DNA of 64,000 nt from an uncultured Porphyromonadaceae bacterium (GTDB lineage Bacteria; Bacteroidota; Bacteroidia; Bacteroidales; Muribaculaceae), in assembly GCA_905202215.1 (NCBI GenBank), contig CAJKRG010000006.1, positions 2,111 through 66,110 on the forward strand. Direction: 5' to 3'. The notes beneath the pieces are model-generated. The model was not told where the DNA came from and made no database searches. It saw nothing but the letters and a program-made list of their open reading frames with translations. Within the stretch, counting starts at the first letter, position 1. Each line of letters opens with the position of its first letter. The translations under genes were made by a program, and so were the position numbers. Shown piece by piece: positions 9,395 through 39,603 of this stretch.

Positions 9395-9510
9395 ATTAAG
9401 AATTATGGATTAAGAATTATGGATTGTGTTTTGTTTACAGTGTATTATCGGCAAATTATTCATAATCCATATTTCGTATATTCATAATTCCTCATTCATA
9501 ATCCATAATT
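9395..9510. repeat. AT-rich inverted-repeat element (MITE/REP-like), copy 1
   Basis: The left arm carries two direct copies of AAGAATTATGGATT. The right arm carries two copies of the complement ATTCATAATCCATA. The spacer is ~35 nt. The element fills the murF-ddl intergenic region. The same terminal motif recurs at 41366-41443. Confidence 0.6.
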
Positions 9511-30604: not shown

Positions 30605-31498
30605 TTACCAAATAAGCAAATTGCGGTCGACGCACTCCGCAATCAGGAAGCATATGGCACAGGCGAACATACACATCGAGGTCATGCCAAGCAAGGGAGT
30701 GAGAGCCGCGCCTGTGCGTTGCCCCATGGCTTTTGTGATAAGAGCCGTTGCAAGTAGATATGCGGCTGGCACGGTCATCCATGCCATGCGCTGTACATAC
30801 CATATGTGCATGGTCAGGGCAACTGCGAGGATGGCATTGGCCATATACAATATGCGCATGGCTTTTGGCCCCCACGCTGTGGCGAGGGTGCTTTTGCCGG
30901 CGGCACGGTCGTCGGGTATGTCGCGGTAGTTGTTTATCACAAGTACATTGGCACCCATCAGGCCTATTGCGCATGACCCGAGGAAAACCGGGTGAGACCA
31001 TTCGAGTGCCTGTACGTAATAGGTCAGATTGACAGGGATAATGCCGAAAAAGAAAAATACGGCGACTTCGCCGAGACAATGTGTTGAGAGAGGATAGGGG
31101 CCGGTGCTGTAGGCGAGCGCTCCGAGTCCGATGGCTATGCCGGCGCCAATAAGCCAGTAACCGCCCCAGTACGTCAGGCTGAGACCGAGCAACGCAGCGG
31201 CGCCGAGGACTCCGAATGTGGCTGTTTTCATGGCGCGGGGAGTGATCTCGCCCTCGGTCACTCCCCGTCGCGGCCCCTGGCGTCCGCGACGGTCGCGTCC
31301 GGCCTTGTAGTCGTAATATTCATTGGCGAAATTCGAGGCGATCTGGCATAAAATAGCGAAAACAAGGCATATTGCCGCCGGCAAAGCCTTGAAAGTCCCG
31401 CTACTTATATTATATGCCAAAGCCATCAGCACTCCGGCCACAGAGACAGGCAGCGTGCGCAGACGCATGGCTTCGATCCAGTATCCAATCTTTTTCAT
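30605..31498 (-). CDS. menA: 1,4-dihydroxy-2-naphthoate octaprenyltransferase (UbiA family)
   Basis: UbiA-fold polytopic membrane protein. N-terminus (WIEAMRLRTLPVSVAGVL) and the Asp-rich motif NEYYDYKAGRD are typical of MenA. Confidence 0.75.
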   Translation of the reverse strand: MKKIGYWIEAMRLRTLPVSVAGVLMALAYNISSGTFKALPAAICLVFAILCQIASNFANEYYDYKAGRDRRGRQGPRRGVTEGEITPRAMKTATFGVLGAAALLGLSLTYWGGYWLIGAGIAIGLGALAYSTGPYPLSTHCLGEVAVFFFFGIIPVNLTYYVQALEWSHPVFLGSCAIGLMGANVLVINNYRDIPDDRAAGKSTLATAWGPKAMRILYMANAILAVALTMHIWYVQRMAWMTVPAAYLLATALITKAMGQRTGAALTPLLGMTSMCMFACAICFLIAECVDRNLLIW

Positions 31499-31621
31499 GC
31501 CGCAAAATTACTCTGAATTTATGAAATATTCCTATTTTGAGAGACTGAAAAAGGAATATATAGATAATGACAATCTCTGTAACTTGTGGCTGGATTGTAT
31601 TGCCATGACGGTTTGCATAAA

Positions 31622-32500
31622 TCAGAGTTTTTGTCTGTACATTGCGCGAAATTCCGACGGAGTGCACTTTTTTCGTTCACGGAAACAACGGCTGAAATGG
31701 CTTACGTTATTGAACCCGCATTCGTAGCATATTTCTGAAATCGGCATCTTGGTGTACACAAGTCGCCTCGAAGCTTCTCCTAATCGCATGTTTATGATGT
31801 AGTCGCTGACCGACAGGCCTGTATGCAATTTGAAAAAGCGCGAGAATGATGATTCGGTCATCCCGATTATGTTTGCCAGATCAATCAGACGGATACGTTC
31901 GGTGATGTGCTCGGTGATATATGTCTGTACTTTGGTGATTCGACGGGAGTCGTTCGAAGTATATTTGTGGGAGAACGTTGAACTGGAAAGCATGCACATA
32001 TCTTTACTGTTGGCAAGTATATCCATAAGTTTCAGTAGGTCGTACATTCTGGCGATCGGACTTGTTTCTTTCGCTATTTTATTGAAATAATAAAAAGTAT
32101 GCAACACGGTCTCTGTTCCGAATGCCACACCGTTTGTTGCCTTGTCTAGCAGGCGCACAATACTGTCGAAGTTATTGCCTCTCAAATAATCGGGATTATA
32201 ATAGTCGGGACCAAACTGAATGGTGAATTCGCTTATTTTGTTCGACTTGCAGTTATACATTTCCCACCCGTGTTCAATGCCGGGTCCCAGCAACACCAAA
32301 TCAAAATCATCAAGCACCTCAATGGAGTCGCCAACAATACGGCGGGCATTCCTGCATCCATAGATAAAGTTTAGTTCATAGGCATCATGGCTGTGGACCG
32401 GATAGTCAAATTCAGACTTTTCTCTTGCCACAGCATAAAAATCATATTTGCCTTTTATAGGTACTAATTCGGTAATTATCTCTTTATTTGGGCTTTTCAT
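31622..32500 (-). CDS. AraC-family transcriptional regulator
   Basis: C-terminal dual HTH of the AraC type (GFNNVSHFSRCFRERKKCTPSEFR). It is divergent from the GH5 gene. Confidence 0.75.
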   Translation of the reverse strand: MKSPNKEIITELVPIKGKYDFYAVAREKSEFDYPVHSHDAYELNFIYGCRNARRIVGDSIEVLDDFDLVLLGPGIEHGWEMYNCKSNKISEFTIQFGPDYYNPDYLRGNNFDSIVRLLDKATNGVAFGTETVLHTFYYFNKIAKETSPIARMYDLLKLMDILANSKDMCMLSSSTFSHKYTSNDSRRITKVQTYITEHITERIRLIDLANIIGMTESSFSRFFKLHTGLSVSDYIINMRLGEASRRLVYTKMPISEICYECGFNNVSHFSRCFRERKKCTPSEFRAMYRQKL

Positions 32501-32800
32501 GGTGGTTTAAAACTACAAACGGTGTTCTCGGCATATGCAAAGATATACTATTTTTCTGCAACGTGCCAATTGTGTTTTATCGCATATGGCATATGATGCA
32601 TATGTAGTTTGCTAATTTTAGCTTCATAGTGCAGGAATCGGAATATCGGTAAAATTGCGTGAAGTTTATAACTTGGTTGATAACAGTTTGTTGCGTCGGA
32701 TTTGCGTCCGTATTTTGTTCTGTTTTTGTCTATTGCTCGTCTGTTCTTGAAAAAGCGGTTAATAGACAAATGCAGAACAATGATACTTTAAAACTCTCTG

Positions 32801-32808
32801 TACTTTTG
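32801..32808 (+). promoter_or_regulatory. -7 box TACTTTTG upstream of the GH5 gene
   Basis: Matches the TAnnTTTG consensus and lies ~40 nt upstream of the ATG at 32850. The -33 element is weak. Confidence 0.35.
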
Positions 32809-32849
32809 CAGCGAATAGCAAAATACCATAGTTAGACACTGCAAATCCC

Positions 32850-33965
32850 ATGAAAAGATTCTTAAGTTTATTATTAATTCATCTTTATTATTTTGTCATT
32901 GTTCAAGCTCAGGGAAGTTTCAGCACCAATGGATCCCGTCTTCTTGATGCTAATGGCAACGAGTTTGTAATGCGAGGTGTAAATTATTCGTGGTGTTGGC
33001 AGAAAGGCAAGGAAAATTCAGTCATTCCCGCCGCAAAACGTATAGGCTGCAACACCGTGCGCATCCAGCTTGGAACAGGTCGCCGCTTTTCTAAACCGGG
33101 TTTACGCGACCTCAAGAAACTGATTACACTCTGCGAGGAAAACAGACTGGTGTCAGTCTTTAATACCCACGATGCCACAGGAAGCGATGACTATGCAGAC
33201 CTTGAGGAGGCTGCTGATTTCTGGGTGGCCTTTGCCGATATTCTTAACGAACACGCCAATACAACCATCATCAACATTGCAAATGAGTGGATGGGGTCAA
33301 TGAATAAAGCCAGCCAATGGGCCGACGGCTACAAGAAGGCGATAGCCATTATACGCGACGCCGGTATCCGCAACACCCTTATGATAGATGCCGCCGGTTG
33401 GGGCCAATGTCCAAAAAGCATTTTCGAGAAAGCAAGCGATGTGGCCGCTGCCGACCCTCTTGGCAACATAATTTTTTCAATGCATTTTTACGATGTTGCC
33501 GCTAAAAACTCAAATACGGTCCGTCAAAACATCGACCAGGCTATTCTTACCGGATTTCCGGTTGTAATCGGCGAGTTCGCGTGCAGCCACGGCGGGCGTT
33601 ATGTCGACTGGCAGACAATTCTGGACTATAGTGCCGCAAAGAAAATGGGCTGGCTGGTCTGGAGCTGGACCGGTAATAGCGGGGGCGTTGAGGACTGCGA
33701 CATGTTCAGAGGCTACGATGAGTCTGCATACCTTCCAAATGGCACGAACACCGTGTTGGGCCGAAACGGTATCAAAGAAACCTCAACCGAATGCTCGGTT
33801 TTCGGCAACTCCGGTATTAAAAATATAACCGAATCAAACGATATCGACATGTCTGAACCTTACGAAATCTTCGATATAACCGGCCGACGTGTAGAACGAT
33901 TCACCGGACCCGGCCTCTACATTGTGCGGCAGGGCAACAAGATAATAAAACTATTCAAACAATAA
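32850..33965 (+). CDS. secreted GH5-family glycoside hydrolase (probable endo-beta-1,4-mannanase) with T9SS C-terminal sorting domain
   Basis: Signal peptide and a (beta/alpha)8 GH5 core. The conserved acid/base region IANEWMG matches GH5 NEx(Y/M)G. The last ~70 aa (YEIFDITGRRVERFTGPGLYIVRQGNKIIKLFKQ) match the Por/T9SS type-A C-terminal domain pattern. Confidence 0.7.
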   Translation: MKRFLSLLLIHLYYFVIVQAQGSFSTNGSRLLDANGNEFVMRGVNYSWCWQKGKENSVIPAAKRIGCNTVRIQLGTGRRFSKPGLRDLKKLITLCEENRLVSVFNTHDATGSDDYADLEEAADFWVAFADILNEHANTTIINIANEWMGSMNKASQWADGYKKAIAIIRDAGIRNTLMIDAAGWGQCPKSIFEKASDVAAADPLGNIIFSMHFYDVAAKNSNTVRQNIDQAILTGFPVVIGEFACSHGGRYVDWQTILDYSAAKKMGWLVWSWTGNSGGVEDCDMFRGYDESAYLPNGTNTVLGRNGIKETSTECSVFGNSGIKNITESNDIDMSEPYEIFDITGRRVERFTGPGLYIVRQGNKIIKLFKQ

Positions 33966-33984
33966 TTAACCAATTAGCTAAGAA

Positions 33985-36429
33985 ATGAACAAATCAATCT
34001 TATCATTTATGGCTGCCATGGTTATGACTCCGGCAATCAATGCTGCCGAACTCGACCTGACACCCATGTATTCCGCAGAATTGTGCTGGAACGGAGCATC
34101 ATTAGAAAACAATAGAGCCTCATGGACCGAAGGCTGGGGCGGCATTGTATTCAATCTTGAAAACAAGGACTATTCGGGCTACAACTATGTGGTTTTTGAA
34201 TTTGCAGAACCATCGCATGCAAAATTCAAACTTGAATCTTACTATGCCGCTGAAAGCGATGCAGCAACCGCAACGGAAGCCGATGCGGCTTCCTCAAAAA
34301 TAATCATGAAGCTGGATCAAACTAAGAAAGGCGACATTGCCAAAATAGCCTTGATGTCGGCTAAACCAGGTTCCACAACTATTTCAAAAGCCGTGATGGT
34401 TGATGAACTTGAAACAGATCCCGTGCTCTTTGATGGCAGTGTTGAGGTGCCTGATATGAAGAAAGTATATTTCAAACTTGGCGCAGATAAATTCATTGGT
34501 CTCAAAAAAGGGCAGACACTCACTGTGGAATTTACCACAGGCTCGCTCCAGCAGTATGCATCGGTAGATTTTTACTCCAACAATGCCAAGCTCGCATGTC
34601 AGAATACTCGCACCAATACTAAGAAAGACGGTCAGTTTGATCTCGGTACAACCTATACTTCAACAACTATAGCCGAAGACAGCGATGTAGAAAAACTTCA
34701 GGCATACGGACTGCAGATTAAAGGCCGCAATGTGACCATCACTAAGGTGACACTTGCCGACGGACCCGTTGTTCCCGATAAGCCCGAAACTCCTGATACA
34801 CCCGACAGCCCGACCGACAATATCCTCTGGACTGGAGAAGCTGCTACCGGCAGTTGGGCCAACGATGTTACTGTCGATGCTCCCAAGTTCGCCGCTCTCG
34901 CTGCCGGCGATAAGATTGCAATCTATCTCAATGTTGATGCCGGCAAGGACTACGGCAACATTGAACTTGCCGACCAGAAATACACCAAACTGGCCGCTGA
35001 TGGCACCGGCGAGGGTCTTGACAACTATGGCTGCATTCAACCGGACATAAACTGCATTACCTACGAGCTGGGTGCGGCCGATGTCGCTTTGCTCAAGAAA
35101 AACGGCCTGCGTGTCAAAGGCGCAAACATTACTGTCACAAAAATTGAACGTATTCCTGGAACCGGTGGTAGCGTCGTCACTCCTGGTGCGACTGAACTCT
35201 GGACTGGAGAAACTGCTACCGGCAGTTGGGCCAACGATATAACTGTCGATGCTCCCAAGTTCGCCGCTCTCGCTGCCGGCGATAAGATTGCAATCTATCT
35301 CAAAGTTGATGCCGGCAAGGATTACGGCAACATTGAACTTGATGACCAGAAATACACCAAACTGGCCGCTGACGGCACCGGCGATGGTCTTGACAACTAT
35401 GGCTGCATTCAACCGGACATAAACCGCATTACTTACGAGCTGGGTGCGGCCGATGTCGCTTTGCTCAAGAAAAACGGTCTGCGCGTGAAAGGCGCAAATA
35501 TTACAGTCACAAAAATAGAACGCATTGCAGGGGATGGCGGCAGCTCCGATATTCCAGGGGAAATCGAGCTCTGGAACGGAAACTTTGCCACCGGCAACTG
35601 GGCCAACGATGTTACTGTCGATGCTCCTAAGTTCGCTAACGTCAAAGGTGGTGACATTATATCGATTTATCTTGGCGTTGATGCCGGCAAAGACTATGGC
35701 AACATTGAGCTCGATGACCAGAACTACACCAAACTGTCGGCTGACGGAACTGCTGCAGCTCTTGACAGATATGGCTGCATTCAGCCCGATGTTACTAAGC
35801 TCGACTACACTCTTACCTCTTCAGATGCCGCGCTTCTCAAGGCTAATGGCCTGCGCGTGAAGGGCGCAAATATCACAATAAGCCGCATTACACTGACTGC
35901 TGGTGATGGAGAACCCGATGAGCCGGCTGTGCCCACTAATGAAACCGTGTTGTGGAGCGGTAGCGTCAACTGTGGTCAATGGGCTCAGACAGTGCATGTA
36001 GCTGCCGAAAAATGGGCAGAAGCAAAAGTTGGCGATAAATTCAAAGTAAACCTCAAAATAAATGCCGGCAAAGGCAAGGGTATAATAAAGGTGCAGAGTG
36101 CAGGCGCAGACCTTGAGGTCAATGGCAAGGGTACAAACATGGATGCCAATGGCAATTTCCAGCGCGGAGCCTCTGAAGCTGTATATGAACTTACGGAAGG
36201 CGACCTTGCAATGCTTAGGCAGAACGGCCTTACAATCTCCGGTTTTGCCGTTACAATCTCACAAGTCAGCCTGCTTTCTCCTGTCAATTCCGGTATCAGC
36301 GATGTCTTTGTAGATGAAAATGTTTCTATCGAATATTATAACCTCAATGGAATACGTGTGGACGAACCCACTCCGGGCATCTACATTCGTCGACAGGGCA
36401 ACAAAGTGAGCAAGGTTATAGTGCGCTAA
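33985..36429 (+). CDS. secreted multi-module protein with four tandem ~124-aa CBM-like repeats and a T9SS C-terminal sorting domain
   Basis: Signal peptide and an N-terminal beta-rich region, then a Pro/Thr/Asp linker (PDKPETPDTPDSPTDN), then four tandem ~372-381-bp repeats starting near 34825, 35197, 35569 and 35950. The first two are ~95% identical at the DNA level. The C-terminus YYNLNGIRVDEPTPGIYIRRQGNKVSKVIVR is a T9SS CTD. Confidence 0.7.
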   Translation: MNKSILSFMAAMVMTPAINAAELDLTPMYSAELCWNGASLENNRASWTEGWGGIVFNLENKDYSGYNYVVFEFAEPSHAKFKLESYYAAESDAATATEADAASSKIIMKLDQTKKGDIAKIALMSAKPGSTTISKAVMVDELETDPVLFDGSVEVPDMKKVYFKLGADKFIGLKKGQTLTVEFTTGSLQQYASVDFYSNNAKLACQNTRTNTKKDGQFDLGTTYTSTTIAEDSDVEKLQAYGLQIKGRNVTITKVTLADGPVVPDKPETPDTPDSPTDNILWTGEAATGSWANDVTVDAPKFAALAAGDKIAIYLNVDAGKDYGNIELADQKYTKLAADGTGEGLDNYGCIQPDINCITYELGAADVALLKKNGLRVKGANITVTKIERIPGTGGSVVTPGATELWTGETATGSWANDITVDAPKFAALAAGDKIAIYLKVDAGKDYGNIELDDQKYTKLAADGTGDGLDNYGCIQPDINRITYELGAADVALLKKNGLRVKGANITVTKIERIAGDGGSSDIPGEIELWNGNFATGNWANDVTVDAPKFANVKGGDIISIYLGVDAGKDYGNIELDDQNYTKLSADGTAAALDRYGCIQPDVTKLDYTLTSSDAALLKANGLRVKGANITISRITLTAGDGEPDEPAVPTNETVLWSGSVNCGQWAQTVHVAAEKWAEAKVGDKFKVNLKINAGKGKGIIKVQSAGADLEVNGKGTNMDANGNFQRGASEAVYELTEGDLAMLRQNGLTISGFAVTISQVSLLSPVNSGISDVFVDENVSIEYYNLNGIRVDEPTPGIYIRRQGNKVSKVIVR

Positions 36430-36470
36430 GCCTTCGACACTGCTATACTCTCAATCCTCGTTAGGTCATG

Positions 36471-36616
36471 GTGTCATAACTCAGCTTTTCAAGGCAGTAG
36501 GGGCGCGCGTTCGGCGGGGCCGCCGAGAATTGCTTGCGAAATTCGCAGATAGCCAGACCTTTGATACGCGGGCGCGCCGAACGCGCGCTCCTACTGAGGA
36601 CTATGTATTATGACAC
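36471..36616. repeat. 146-bp nested palindromic element (9-bp terminal inverted repeats enclosing a 22-bp GC-rich inverted repeat)
   Basis: Outer inverted repeat GTGTCATAA (36471-36479) and TTATGACAC (36608-36616). Inner arms CAGTAGGGGCGCGCGTTCGGCG (36495-36516) and CGCCGAACGCGCGCTCCTACTG (36575-36596, one mismatch), separated by a 58-nt GC-rich spacer. It lies between two convergent genes. Confidence 0.6.
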
Positions 36617-36642
36617 ATCTTCCTGACAGTTAATGAAATAAA

Positions 36643-36672
36643 GGCCCACGGAATTTGAGATTTCCGTGGGCC
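36643..36672 (-). terminator. rho-independent terminator of the M16 peptidase gene
   Basis: Perfect 11-bp stem GGCCCACGGAA/TTCCGTGGGCC with an 8-nt loop. On the minus strand it is followed by a U-rich tract (complement of AAATAAA at 36634-36640). Confidence 0.65.
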
Positions 36673-36696
36673 TCATGCTTGTGGGGGAGGAGCTGA

Positions 36697-39603
36697 TTAG
36701 TATCCGAAGATGTCTTCGGTGGTGAGGATTACGACTTTGCCGAGTTTGCGGAGTTCGTCCATGGGAAGCTCTTTGATGTCGCCGAGGATTCCGATGTTAT
36801 AGATACGGCCTTTGACATTATCTTTCTGGAACGTCTCGAGCTGGTCGAGGGTTGCTGTCGGAAGAATTTCGAAGAGTTCGCGGCGCGGGTCGTGGTCGTA
36901 ACCGAGGTCGCGGTCATCGAGATATGCGAATGCCAACTGATTGTTGACGTAACGCTCGGTGCGGCAGCGGGCGTCGAGGCCGGCCTTGGCAAGCTCGAAT
37001 GCTGCCTCGCTGCGGGGCATGTCGTTGATTATCTCATCGAAAGCGCTCATGGCATCGAGGAGTTTGTCGTTCTGAGTGGCAATAGTTGTCACATATGCAT
37101 AAGTGCGGTCTTTCTTGGATGGCTGGCTGAAACCTGCCCATGCCGAGTATGCGAGCGAGCGACTTTCGCGCATTTCCTGGAAGACGATAGAGTTCATCGA
37201 GCCTCCGAAATACTCGTTATAAAGCTGGAGCATAGGCTGCTTGGCCGGATCGAAAACTTCGCCGCGGTTCGAATAGCCCATCATATAGAGCTGTTTTGCC
37301 TCATAGGGAGCTATGTAGATCACGGTTTCGGTGGGCTGTAGGGGTTTGTATTTCTGCTCCTTGGAGGGCACGATAGGCTTTTTGGCGATGGGATGCGTGG
37401 CGTTTATGAGCTTCACGACTGCTTTCTCGGGTGCGTTGCCCCAGTAGATTGCTGTCTGTTCGTAGTTGTTGAGCTTACGGAGCGCCTCGATGAAGTCTTC
37501 GGGTTTGGCAGCTCGCATCGATTCGATGGAAGGCTGTTCGGTGGCTGGATTCTTGGCTCCGTATCGCACATAGTTCTGGAGCATGCTGAAGTTCGAGCGC
37601 TGGTTGTGTTTTGCGTCGAGACGCATTTTTTCTTGACGGTCGATATTGGCCTTCAGAGCCTCGGGCGAGAGGACTGCGTCGGCCATAACTTTCTCGAAGA
37701 GAGCCACTGCCTTGTCCATGTTTTCGCTCAGACCGGTGATGACGGCGTATGTACGTTCGCCGCCGACGCTGAAGTTGAATTTGCAGGCGAGCTTGAAGAA
37801 TTCGTTCTTCACCTCTTCAGGTGTCATGGTCGAGGTACCTACATAGTTCATGAGGTTTCCGGCCATATAAAGAGCCGGATCTGTATACCAGCCGAGGTCG
37901 TAGACGTAAATGAGCTGGAAGATGTCGTTGGTTTTGTTGGGCATGTAGAGTACTTCCATGCCGTTTTTGGCCTTGAGACGGGTGAGGTCTTTCTTATAGT
38001 CGGCGAAGACCGGGGTGATAGGCTCCACTTTGCTGTTCTGGATCTCCCTGAGGAAATCGGAACTGAGATGGCGGTTCATCTCGATTGGAGTGATTGCCGG
38101 TTTCGCTATCTTGAGCTCGTTCTTGTCCTCGCCCTTGCGCTTGTATATGGCTGCAAAATTTTCAGGACCGAGATATTTGTTGGCCATAGCCACGATGTCG
38201 GCTTTGGTCACTTTGTCGATTTTCGAGAGGTCGGCTACTTCATCGGCCCAGGGTATGCCGTTGACAAAGGCATCGACATAGTAATTGGCGCGCGAGCTGT
38301 TGTCGGTAAGACCGCTCTGGACGTCGAGTTTCATATTTGCCTTGACGGCTTCGACGAGTTCGTCGGTGAATTCGCCTTTGCGGAGCTTTTCGGCTTCGGC
38401 AAGGAAGATGGCGCGCACGTCGTCGAGGCTTTGATCGGCCTTTGGACGTCCGGTCATCACGTAAGCACCGGCATCGGCCATATCAAGAATATATGCTCCA
38501 CCGCCGAGAACGCGCTGGGGAAGAGTGATATCGAGGTCGAAGAGGCCGGTCTTGCCGTTGGCCATAACGTTATCGAGAACTTTGAGAGCCGTCATGTCTT
38601 CGTTGGCCGCTTCGGGCAGACGCCAGCAGAGAGTGATGTTTTCCGCCTCAGGACCGAAAGTCTCGACATCGACGGGTTTTGTGAATGCTTTTTCAGCCGG
38701 AAGCGACGGGCGCGGGAGGTTTTTGTTGGGTTTGAGATGACCGAAGTATTTGGTGATGACGTCGACCATATAGTCGGGATCGAAGTCACCGGAAAGGCAG
38801 ACAGCCATATTGTTGGGCACGTACCACTGTTTGTGGTAGTTCTTTACGTTGGTGATCGACGGATTCTTCAGATTTTCCTGAGTGCCGAGCACAGTCTGTG
38901 AACCGTAGGGATGGTTAGGGTAGAGTGTCGAGAGAATTGCTTCGTATACCTTTCGGTTGTCCTGAGTCAGCGACATGTTCTTCTCCTCGTAGATGGTTTC
39001 CAGCTCGGTATGGAATCCGCGGAGGATCGGGTGCTCGAAGCGGTCGGCCTGTATACGTGCCCAGTTTTCGATCTGATTGGACGGTATGTCCTCGACGTAG
39101 CATGTCACGTCGTAGCTTGTGTAGGCATTTGTTCCGTTGGCACCGATAGCGCTCATGAGTTTGTCGTACTCGTTGGGGATAGCTATTTTTGAGGCTTCGT
39201 AGCTCACGGAGTCGATCTCGCGGTAGATGCGGGCACGCTCGGTGCTGTCGGTGGTGCGGCGGTATGTCTCGAAGAGAGTTTCGATACGGTCGAGAAGCGG
39301 TTTCTCTGCGGCATAGTCGCTTGTGCCGAATTTTTCAGTGCCCTTGAACATAAGGTGTTCGAAATAGTGGGCCAGACCGGTGGTTTCGGCGGGATCATTC
39401 TTACCTCCCACACGCACTGCGATATATGTCTGAATGCGCGGCTGGTCTTTGTTGACGCTCATGAAGAGCTTCAGACCGTTTGGAAGAGTGTACATCTTGG
39501 TCTGCAGGGGGTCGCCGGGCACGGTCTCGTAATTGTACTTCGCAGCCGAAGCCATTACGGGCAGTAAGAGTGCCAGAGCGCCGAATAGACGCAATCCTTT
39601 CAT
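36697..39603 (-). CDS. secreted M16-family zinc metallopeptidase (insulinase/pitrilysin-like, two-lobe)
   Basis: Signal peptide and the inverted zinc-binding motif HYFEHLMFKGTEKFG (HxxEH). Length 968 aa, consistent with a double M16 active/inactive domain architecture. Confidence 0.75.
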   Translation of the reverse strand: MKGLRLFGALALLLPVMASAAKYNYETVPGDPLQTKMYTLPNGLKLFMSVNKDQPRIQTYIAVRVGGKNDPAETTGLAHYFEHLMFKGTEKFGTSDYAAEKPLLDRIETLFETYRRTTDSTERARIYREIDSVSYEASKIAIPNEYDKLMSAIGANGTNAYTSYDVTCYVEDIPSNQIENWARIQADRFEHPILRGFHTELETIYEEKNMSLTQDNRKVYEAILSTLYPNHPYGSQTVLGTQENLKNPSITNVKNYHKQWYVPNNMAVCLSGDFDPDYMVDVITKYFGHLKPNKNLPRPSLPAEKAFTKPVDVETFGPEAENITLCWRLPEAANEDMTALKVLDNVMANGKTGLFDLDITLPQRVLGGGAYILDMADAGAYVMTGRPKADQSLDDVRAIFLAEAEKLRKGEFTDELVEAVKANMKLDVQSGLTDNSSRANYYVDAFVNGIPWADEVADLSKIDKVTKADIVAMANKYLGPENFAAIYKRKGEDKNELKIAKPAITPIEMNRHLSSDFLREIQNSKVEPITPVFADYKKDLTRLKAKNGMEVLYMPNKTNDIFQLIYVYDLGWYTDPALYMAGNLMNYVGTSTMTPEEVKNEFFKLACKFNFSVGGERTYAVITGLSENMDKAVALFEKVMADAVLSPEALKANIDRQEKMRLDAKHNQRSNFSMLQNYVRYGAKNPATEQPSIESMRAAKPEDFIEALRKLNNYEQTAIYWGNAPEKAVVKLINATHPIAKKPIVPSKEQKYKPLQPTETVIYIAPYEAKQLYMMGYSNRGEVFDPAKQPMLQLYNEYFGGSMNSIVFQEMRESRSLAYSAWAGFSQPSKKDRTYAYVTTIATQNDKLLDAMSAFDEIINDMPRSEAAFELAKAGLDARCRTERYVNNQLAFAYLDDRDLGYDHDPRRELFEILPTATLDQLETFQKDNVKGRIYNIGILGDIKELPMDELRKLGKVVILTTEDIFGY

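Follow-up and report, generated by a model that had tools for sequence, protein, structure and literature searches.

A probable GTAG-REP doublet between convergent genes of a Muribaculaceae genome and a candidate RAYT-type transposase in a related genome

We analysed a 64-kb stretch of DNA from an uncultured Muribaculaceae bacterium (contig CAJKRG010000006.1; hereafter the window, in which positions are counted from the first letter and the average GC content is 50.8%). Our subject is a palindromic element of 146 nucleotides (nt) that lies between two convergent genes, encoding an 814-amino-acid (aa) repeat protein on the plus strand and an M16 peptidase on the minus strand. An original prediction, made from the letters of the stretch, had pointed out the element and described this convergent context correctly (Table 1). 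The element starts 41 nt past the stop codon of the 814-aa protein gene. It had been described as something other than a simple terminator, and this was borne out: no U-tract follows its hairpin, and a consensus scan reports no terminator there. The real terminator had been placed in a separate hairpin at 36643-36672. We found this hairpin at 36641-36674, and it is a terminator; with a T-run on the minus strand, it serves the M16 gene. It is the only terminator detected by the scan in the intergenic region, and a canonical or otherwise obvious one for the plus-strand gene was not among the results.

Table 1. Coordinates of the element, its parts and its neighbours in the window
Feature	Position	Strand	Remarks
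Upstream gene, 814-aa repeat protein	33985-36429	+	C-terminus ...IEYYNLNGIRVDEPTPGIYIRRQGNKVSKVIVR
Left terminal inverted repeat	36460-36479		9-bp core GTGTCATAA at 36471-36479
Weaker left extension, GTTAGG-N5	36460-36470		Read from the sequence
Left outer flank (CTCAGCTTTTCAAGG)	36480-36494		Between terminus and REP unit; semi-conserved in the subfamily
Left REP unit, type A, then CGAGAA	36495-36523	+	GTAG tag at 36497-36500, then GC hairpin
Central spacer	36524-36567		45.5% GC, small internal hairpin; homologous to spacers of L009, L010, L013 and L031
Right REP unit, type B, on its own strand then GTATCAA	36568-36596	-	Tag reads CTAC at 36591-36594 on the plus strand
Right-hand outer flank and terminal inverted repeat	36597-36627		TTATGACAC at 36608-36616, weaker extension to 36627
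Intrinsic terminator of the M16 peptidase gene	36641-36674	-	13-bp stem then TATTTCATTA on the minus strand; outside the element
M16 peptidase gene	36697-39603	-	Convergent neighbour

The architecture of the element proved to be largely as predicted. The inner inverted repeat, whose arms are the left and right units of Table 1, ranks first among the inverted repeats of the entire window; its arms are 29 nt long rather than the 22 nt claimed, 90% complementary and 44 nt apart. The 9-bp terminal inverted repeats are exact, and a perfect inverted repeat of at least this length arose between two 35-nt flanks in only 10 of 5000 shuffles. The boundaries of the 146-nt unit are essentially right as well, since homologous copies stop at the same GTGTCATAA motifs. 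Folding of the unit gave -78.1 kcal/mol (z = -7.9) as plus-strand RNA and -68.8 kcal/mol (z = -6.0) as minus-strand RNA, with no shuffled control equalling the fold on either strand, and -47.5 and -38.8 kcal/mol as DNA. One claim was inaccurate: a spacer of about 75% GC had been proposed, but the high GC content sits in the arms (83% and 79%), whereas the 44-nt loop has only 45.5% and the whole unit 57.5%.

Each arm is one copy of a 29-nt unit, CAGTAGGGGCGCGCGTTCGGCGCGCCCGC, which recurs at other loci (numbered L001 and so on) and consists of a GTAG tag followed by a GC hairpin of its own. It is laid out as CAGTAG, then GGGCGCGC-GTTCG-GCGCGCCC, then GC. The consensus unit folds alone, at -12.9 kcal/mol as DNA, into a hairpin with a GC stem of 8 bp and a loop of 5 nt; the left and right units of the window, at -8.0 and -10.1 kcal/mol, are partly degraded by comparison. 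The left unit departs from the consensus at 36517 and 36519, both C to G, and the consensus C of 36517 is retained in L001, a second assembly of the window's species; the right unit carries one substitution. Across 33 extracted units the 29-nt core is nearly invariant and the flanks vary between copies, while GTAG is kept (as CAGTAG 5' of the stem) in 30, both units of the window included.

The units are found singly, in head-to-head doublets and in clusters, such as four tandem units in L021 and three in L016. Every doublet has its GTAG ends outside, around spacers of about 20-140 nt, and is asymmetric, in that one arm runs on into CGAGAA and the other into GTATCAA. The doublet of the window belongs to a subfamily with L009, L010, L013 and L031, whose members have a common spacer and common outer flanks (78-86% identity) and lose similarity beyond the GTGTCATAA termini. 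The repeated unit in this subfamily is therefore the whole doublet with its spacer and ends, about 146-160 nt long. A second spacer subfamily comprises L011, L012 and L027. The left terminus is also present in L013, L015, L029, L031, L009, L016, L021 and L023; the motif TCAG..TTTCA(A/G)GG stands directly 5' of CAGTAGG in L013, L015, L031, L010 and L029; and the right end of L009, ...AAAATGTATTATGACACAC, aligns with the right outer flank and terminus of the window copy. Conservation is nevertheless far lower in the outer ends than in the internal 29-nt GTAG hairpin, and many copies consist of one hairpin with no termini. No unit lies inside a credible gene (two fall within open reading frames (ORFs) of about 100 aa that we judged spurious, being composed of repeat sequence), and 24 of the 34 gene ends adjacent to units are 3' ends. 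By structure, then, the unit is a GTAG-tagged repetitive extragenic palindrome (REP), organised here as a head-to-head dimer, and the dimer also has the architecture of a REPIN, in which two inverted REPs and a spacer form a hairpin.

A scan for exact matches to a 20-mer from one arm (AGTAGGNGCGCGCGTTCGGCG), with one genome for each of 185,579 species, returned 22 DNA blocks in just two genomes, both of them metagenome-assembled genomes (MAGs) of Muribaculaceae type. MGBC105056 is labelled Muribaculaceae and encodes an M16 peptidase 94% identical to that of the window; SRR19792994_bin.78 is labelled Porphyromonadaceae and shows about 90% DNA identity to MGBC105056 where the two overlap. The exact 29-mer was met in one metagenome contig, in a match cut at the locus end. 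An nhmmer census of the collected DNA (379 kb) counted 42 units, including two in the window and two in L001, with at least 27 in MGBC105056 and at least 10 in SRR19792994_bin.78; it found none in the syntenic loci of other relatives. The element had no BLAST match in plasmid and phage collections, and its core none in viral contigs. The copy-number check proposed with the original prediction thus confirms a dispersed family, though with only one copy inside the window: the REP unit is a dispersed, extragenic, multi-copy repeat within a narrow Muribaculaceae clade. In orthologous locus pairs of the two MAGs (L015/L028 and L011/L024) REP units occupy the same intergenic regions but are rearranged, so that neither pair offers a clean contrast of filled and empty sites.

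Two further observations concern these MAGs. They are 90% identical over a 4.4-kb stretch, and REP units stand just past its end (L015:4462-4490 and L028:4750-4778), in the same intergenic region with different surrounding sequence, which suggests that some insertions are older than the split of the two species. MGBC105056, for its part, seems unusually rich in extragenic repeats. At six of its loci (L014, L016, L017, L018, L021 and L030) REP units are embedded among other repeat families, which include arrays of CAGCCCG-type heptamers and GC hairpins containing CCATAGG. It also harbours palindromic modules of about 450 nt with inverted REP units at their borders and a bidirectional terminator-like hairpin at the centre.

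A rival explanation is a functional RNA selected for its structure, be it a stabiliser in the 3' untranslated region (UTR), an unconventional terminator of the upstream gene or, as the original prediction offered, a small RNA of about 150 nt. The plus strand, which is the sense strand of the upstream gene, folds 9 kcal/mol better than the minus strand; the family prefers gene 3' ends; and the element is located where homologous gene cassettes (L036-L039) have, after their last gene, an ordinary hairpin-plus-T terminator and no REP. The advantage of the plus strand arises, however, because a single arm mismatch reads as G-U on that strand, and one G-U position is no evidence of RNA selection. 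In ten doublets, 21 arm positions are off consensus, all of them in one arm only, and none of the 21 is compensated in the other; the window copy itself has three such one-arm substitutions. Arms that decay independently from a master sequence show this pattern, and a selected stem does not. The Rfam search that had been proposed gave no hit at gathering thresholds over the whole window, and relaxed thresholds returned only chance hairpin matches to microRNA models, at 20 bits against thresholds of 70-200. Moreover, doublets face either way with respect to the upstream gene, half-elements and clusters exist too, no U-tract follows the hairpin, and no sigma-70-type promoter-like site was found within the element. 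With invariant stems lacking covariation, single arms, both orientations and no Rfam match, the small RNA is not supported, and we regard a structure-selected RNA of any of these kinds as unlikely. An effect on mRNA 3' ends as a by-product is likely and is included in the explanation that we prefer, namely a mobile REP doublet.

REP and REPIN elements are mobilised by REP-associated tyrosine transposases (RAYTs), which are Y1 HUH transposases (PMC3116915, PMC3733652, PMC6006769). A strict regular expression for the HUH and YxxxNP motifs, run on the collected DNA, found no RAYT. It missed a candidate because the copy concerned reads His instead of Tyr and NV instead of NP. When all six-frame ORFs were searched by phmmer with E. 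coli TnpA_REP (verified to be identical to PDB 4ER8), the best hit was L020:796-1380. L020 opens a 75-kb contig of MGBC105056, the MAG richest in units, and the first letters of this contig fall within a REP unit. The protein encoded at L020:859-1380 (P0270) has 174 aa and the motifs MPNHFH (HUH), WQRSFHEH and LHIDRNV, and among NCBIfam families it matches best NF047646, REP-associated tyrosine transposase (REP_Tyr_transpos; E = 1.1e-10, 41.6 bits). A large protein collection yielded 26 homologues, among them one that its source calls RayT. Alignment of the homologues shows the HUH histidines and W138 to be invariant or nearly so and Tyr159-Ile160 and Asn163 to be nearly invariant; no member has lost the HUH motif (NHFH). 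At position 159, P0270 has His where all 12 other sequences examined that extend so far, from two clusters, have Tyr. Searched against the whole PDB, the family profile matched 4ER8 only (E = 9e-8). An AlphaFold model (pLDDT 81, pTM 0.76) likewise had 4ER8 as its top structural match (E = 1.9e-6, TM about 0.55), followed by the IS608 and ISDra2 transposases. Cluster members are found in several assemblies on contigs of up to 151 kb, which fits a chromosomal gene; several of the RAYT contigs are only about 1 kb long.

The candidate gene is accompanied by REP units. Two units precede the gene in L020, a canonical one at 1-26 and a degenerate one at 706-725, the latter about 134 nt from the start codon; no unit was found downstream of the gene. 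In an 84%-identical cluster, the called ORFs read through the upstream DNA in two independent assemblies (P0287 and P0283). The extension of P0287 comprises GRALGAPA (a REP on the plus strand), 10 residues and TRARRTRAPT (a REP on the minus strand), and ends 27 nt before the start codon; TRARRTRAPT is an exact match to the consensus REP in one frame. In the shorter extension of P0283 only the proximal flank PTDLDLKLFSA, common to P0287, is readable. These translations imply a REP doublet directly upstream of the RAYT gene in at least one assembly. One REP-carrying MAG, then, has a gene for a candidate Y1 HUH transposase of RAYT type, and REP units lie just upstream of it. The possibly inactivated gene of L020 sits in the genome with most REP copies, and the REP unit just upstream of it is degenerate too. 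Small ORFs adjoining REP units elsewhere are not transposases.

Cumulatively, we are fairly confident that the element in the window is one copy of a GTAG-REP doublet, a REPIN-like element linked to a Y1 HUH transposase. Its link to a RAYT is partial: the gene is in a related REP-carrying genome, its family scores are below threshold and its flanking repeats are upstream only. Several points weigh against our interpretation. 1) The NCBIfam score of 41.6 bits is below the curated cut-off of 80, and the match of P0270 to Pfam Y1_Tnp (E = 0.011) is below its curated cut-off too. 2) The MGBC105056 transposase may be inactive through its replacement of Tyr159 by His. 3) Searches of the window, and of about 1.8 kb of further sequence of its species reached through the window's end genes, detected no RAYT, so that a cognate transposase in the window's own genome is unproven, and this genome shows one doublet in about 66 kb read. 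4) The upstream doublet of the second cluster is deduced from protein read-through, not from DNA. 5) As loci were picked by an exact 20-mer of one arm, core conservation is overstated; even so, second arms, which fall outside this ascertainment, likewise stay within 0-6 substitutions of the consensus. 6) No clean pair of a filled and an empty site was found, and mobility is deduced from distribution. On the last point, close relatives aligned through the M16 gene are without an entire 5.2-kb gene cassette (described below) and offer no informative empty site; GH5 homologues lead to the cassette elsewhere without the element, at 77% identity or less, which is too diverged to define an insertion point; and the contigs of a 96-98% identical strain stop short of the element.

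The original prediction had also offered a MITE-like insertion (MITE, miniature inverted-repeat transposable element). The part of this claim that holds is a dispersed, non-autonomous repeat family; the classical DDE type does not, since we see a GTAG hairpin doublet, a link to a Y1 HUH enzyme and no visible target-site duplication. In a DDE-type MITE, the element would be a deletion derivative of an insertion sequence (IS), mobilised in trans through its terminal inverted repeats (GGCAGTGTGTCATAA-like), and the internal GC hairpins would be incidental. Such repeats are real and recur in other copies, the size of about 150 nt would suit, and the family is multi-copy and extragenic. Yet the window copy has no flanking direct repeat under either choice of ends, and no IS with matching ends occurs in about 380 kb of collected sequence. 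The outer ends are also much less conserved than the 29-nt hairpin, many copies are single hairpins devoid of termini, and a RAYT-type gene with adjoining REP units is present in one REP-carrying MAG. We therefore hold a DDE-type MITE to be very unlikely.

Conserved inverted repeats around variable spacers at many Bacteroidales loci also call to mind an inverton of the Bacteroidales type, a segment flipped between its repeats by a site-specific recombinase, and in L031 the other arm type is bordered by an outer flank like that on the left of the window copy. We give this explanation hardly any credence. The 44-nt spacer is far shorter than known invertons and has no promoter-like site, the element lies downstream of both convergent genes and has the same orientation in two independent assemblies of the species, many units are singlets, and the associated enzyme is of the Y1 HUH transposase type, not an invertase. 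The consensus motifs of attC/integron sites and Mpi-type invertons, when compared by eye, did not fit either.

By analogy with known systems, the transposase of a GTAG-REP doublet would recognise the small REP hairpin and its 5' GTAG in single-stranded DNA, and would move or copy the doublet without target-site duplications, in the manner proposed for E. coli TnpA_REP and for the REPIN/RAYT systems of Pseudomonas. The copy in the window, with three substitutions in its core of 58 nt, would then be a slightly decayed insertion. Transcription of the plus-strand gene probably carries it into the 3' UTR as a very stable hairpin (-78 kcal/mol), because it starts 41 nt past the stop codon and no canonical plus-strand terminator was detected. 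There it may act as a block to 3' exonucleases or as a weak terminator, and this effect of the RNA on mRNA 3' ends would be a by-product and not the reason why the sequence exists.

Among such systems, the REPIN/RAYT of Pseudomonas fluorescens and relatives (Bertels & Rainey 2011, PMC3116915; RAREFAN preprint, 10.1101/2022.05.22.493013) resembles ours in that two inverted REPs and a short spacer form one long hairpin, repetition is of whole doublets, all outside genes, and repeats adjoin a low-copy gene for a Y1 transposase, here a candidate one. It differs in belonging to Proteobacteria rather than Bacteroidota (Muribaculaceae), in having RAYTs of groups 2 and 3 rather than the subclass 2.4 motifs of Quentin et al., and in reaching hundreds of copies against tens so far here. 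The GTAG-REP superfamily (PMC3733652), which includes E. coli REP/BIME and the SMAG repeats of S. maltophilia, has a 5' GTAG outside the stem, as here. The 8-bp stem and 5-nt loop are within its published ranges (5-13 bp and 2-20 nt), and head-to-head dimers (20-100 bp apart), singlets, clusters and a bias to positions downstream of genes are common to both. By contrast, the stem and loop sequences are unlike those of any family with which we compared them.

REPs of this anatomy are also known from the same phylum. Di Nocera et al. (2013, PMC3733652) reported GTAG repeats in Proteobacteria, Cyanobacteria, Chloroflexi and the PVC group, and in Bacteroidetes only CGTC repeats. Quentin et al. (2018, PMC6006769) described REPs beside transposases of subclasses 2.4 and 2.6 in Bacteroidetes, subclass 2.4 being common in Cyanobacteria and Bacteroidetes. 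In Runella slithyformis, GTAG REPs GTAGGGGCGGGGCTTGCCTCCGCCC flank a subclass 2.4 TnpA_REP (PMC6006769, Table S1), and they share the anatomy found here: GTAG, a G-rich 8-bp stem and a 5-nt loop. The motif pattern of our family (NHFH, WQ, YIxxN) fits this subclass, whose pattern is NH[IFV]H, WQ and YIxxN. Runella differs in stem sequence and in bacterial order, and the subclass consensus YIxNNP contrasts with YIDRNV in the Muribaculaceae protein. As for E. coli TnpA_REP/RayT bound to its REP hairpin (4ER8), its HUH and Tyr motifs align with those of our family, although identity is about 18-24%, residues 86-107 form an extra insertion modelled here with low confidence, and its REP sequence is another one. 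Our literature search found no paper describing such repeats in Muribaculaceae.

The surroundings of the element yielded further observations. Relative to sister MAGs, window positions 31511-36697 are an extra 5.2-kb cassette between ubiA (30605-31498, minus strand) and the M16 gene; in the sister MAGs (L002-L004) only 34 nt separate these two genes. The cassette carries genes for an AraC-family regulator (31622-32500, minus strand), a GH5 glycoside hydrolase (32850-33965, plus strand) and the 814-aa protein. The same three genes occur in unrelated genomic contexts in L036-L039, and the cassette looks like a small transferable module for glycan utilisation. The C-terminus of the 814-aa protein looks like a sorting domain of the type IX secretion system (T9SS), which would make the protein a putative T9SS cargo. 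Its gene contains tandem domain repeats at 34825-35877 that recur about every 372 nt (124 aa) and share about 76-82% of their nucleotides, visible as off-diagonal BLAST hits and as recurring LWTGE.ATGSWAND.TVDAPKFAALAAGDKIAIYL segments, and contigs of near-identical strains break within this repeat. Between the divergent AraC and GH5 genes, at 32715-32780, there is an inverted repeat of 20 nt (90% complementary, arms 26 nt apart, also present in L036 and L037) that may serve as an operator for the AraC regulator. Elsewhere in the window, an AT-rich 28-nt inverted repeat at 9401-9510 (82% complementary) is built from AATTATGGATT motifs in a 118-nt gap between two plus-strand genes, a Mur-ligase-family gene and a D-Ala-D-Ala ligase gene by homology with L041; runs of GGGGATTA / TTAGGAG motifs, loosely like these, adjoin a REP doublet in L026.

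Muribaculaceae, which are abundant in gut microbiomes and little studied genetically, and in which REP/RAYT systems are uncharacterised, here yield a GTAG-REP family that is compact and defined by sequence, together with a candidate cognate RAYT. The finding is of modest interest to specialists in REPIN/RAYT systems and useful for genome annotation in gut Bacteroidales: its units could easily pass for RNA genes, terminators or invertons, and its repeats coincide with contig ends of MAGs, as where L020 starts within a unit. The 29-nt core might be of use as a clade marker and as a biochemical substrate. At the locus itself, the element may affect the stability of the upstream gene's mRNA or read-through into the convergent M16 gene.

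A wider proposal is more tentative, and we hold it to be somewhat less probable than its opposite: that a living REPIN-RAYT population exists in Muribaculaceae of the mouse and human gut, vertically inherited within one genus-level clade like the systems of Pseudomonas and Enterobacteria. If this were true, MGBC105056, with its Tyr159-to-His change, its decayed REP and the most copies, would be a natural experiment on a REPIN population after loss of the transposase, and the idea of 'domesticated replicators' would extend to a dominant gut phylum in which the 2013 survey found no GTAG REPs.

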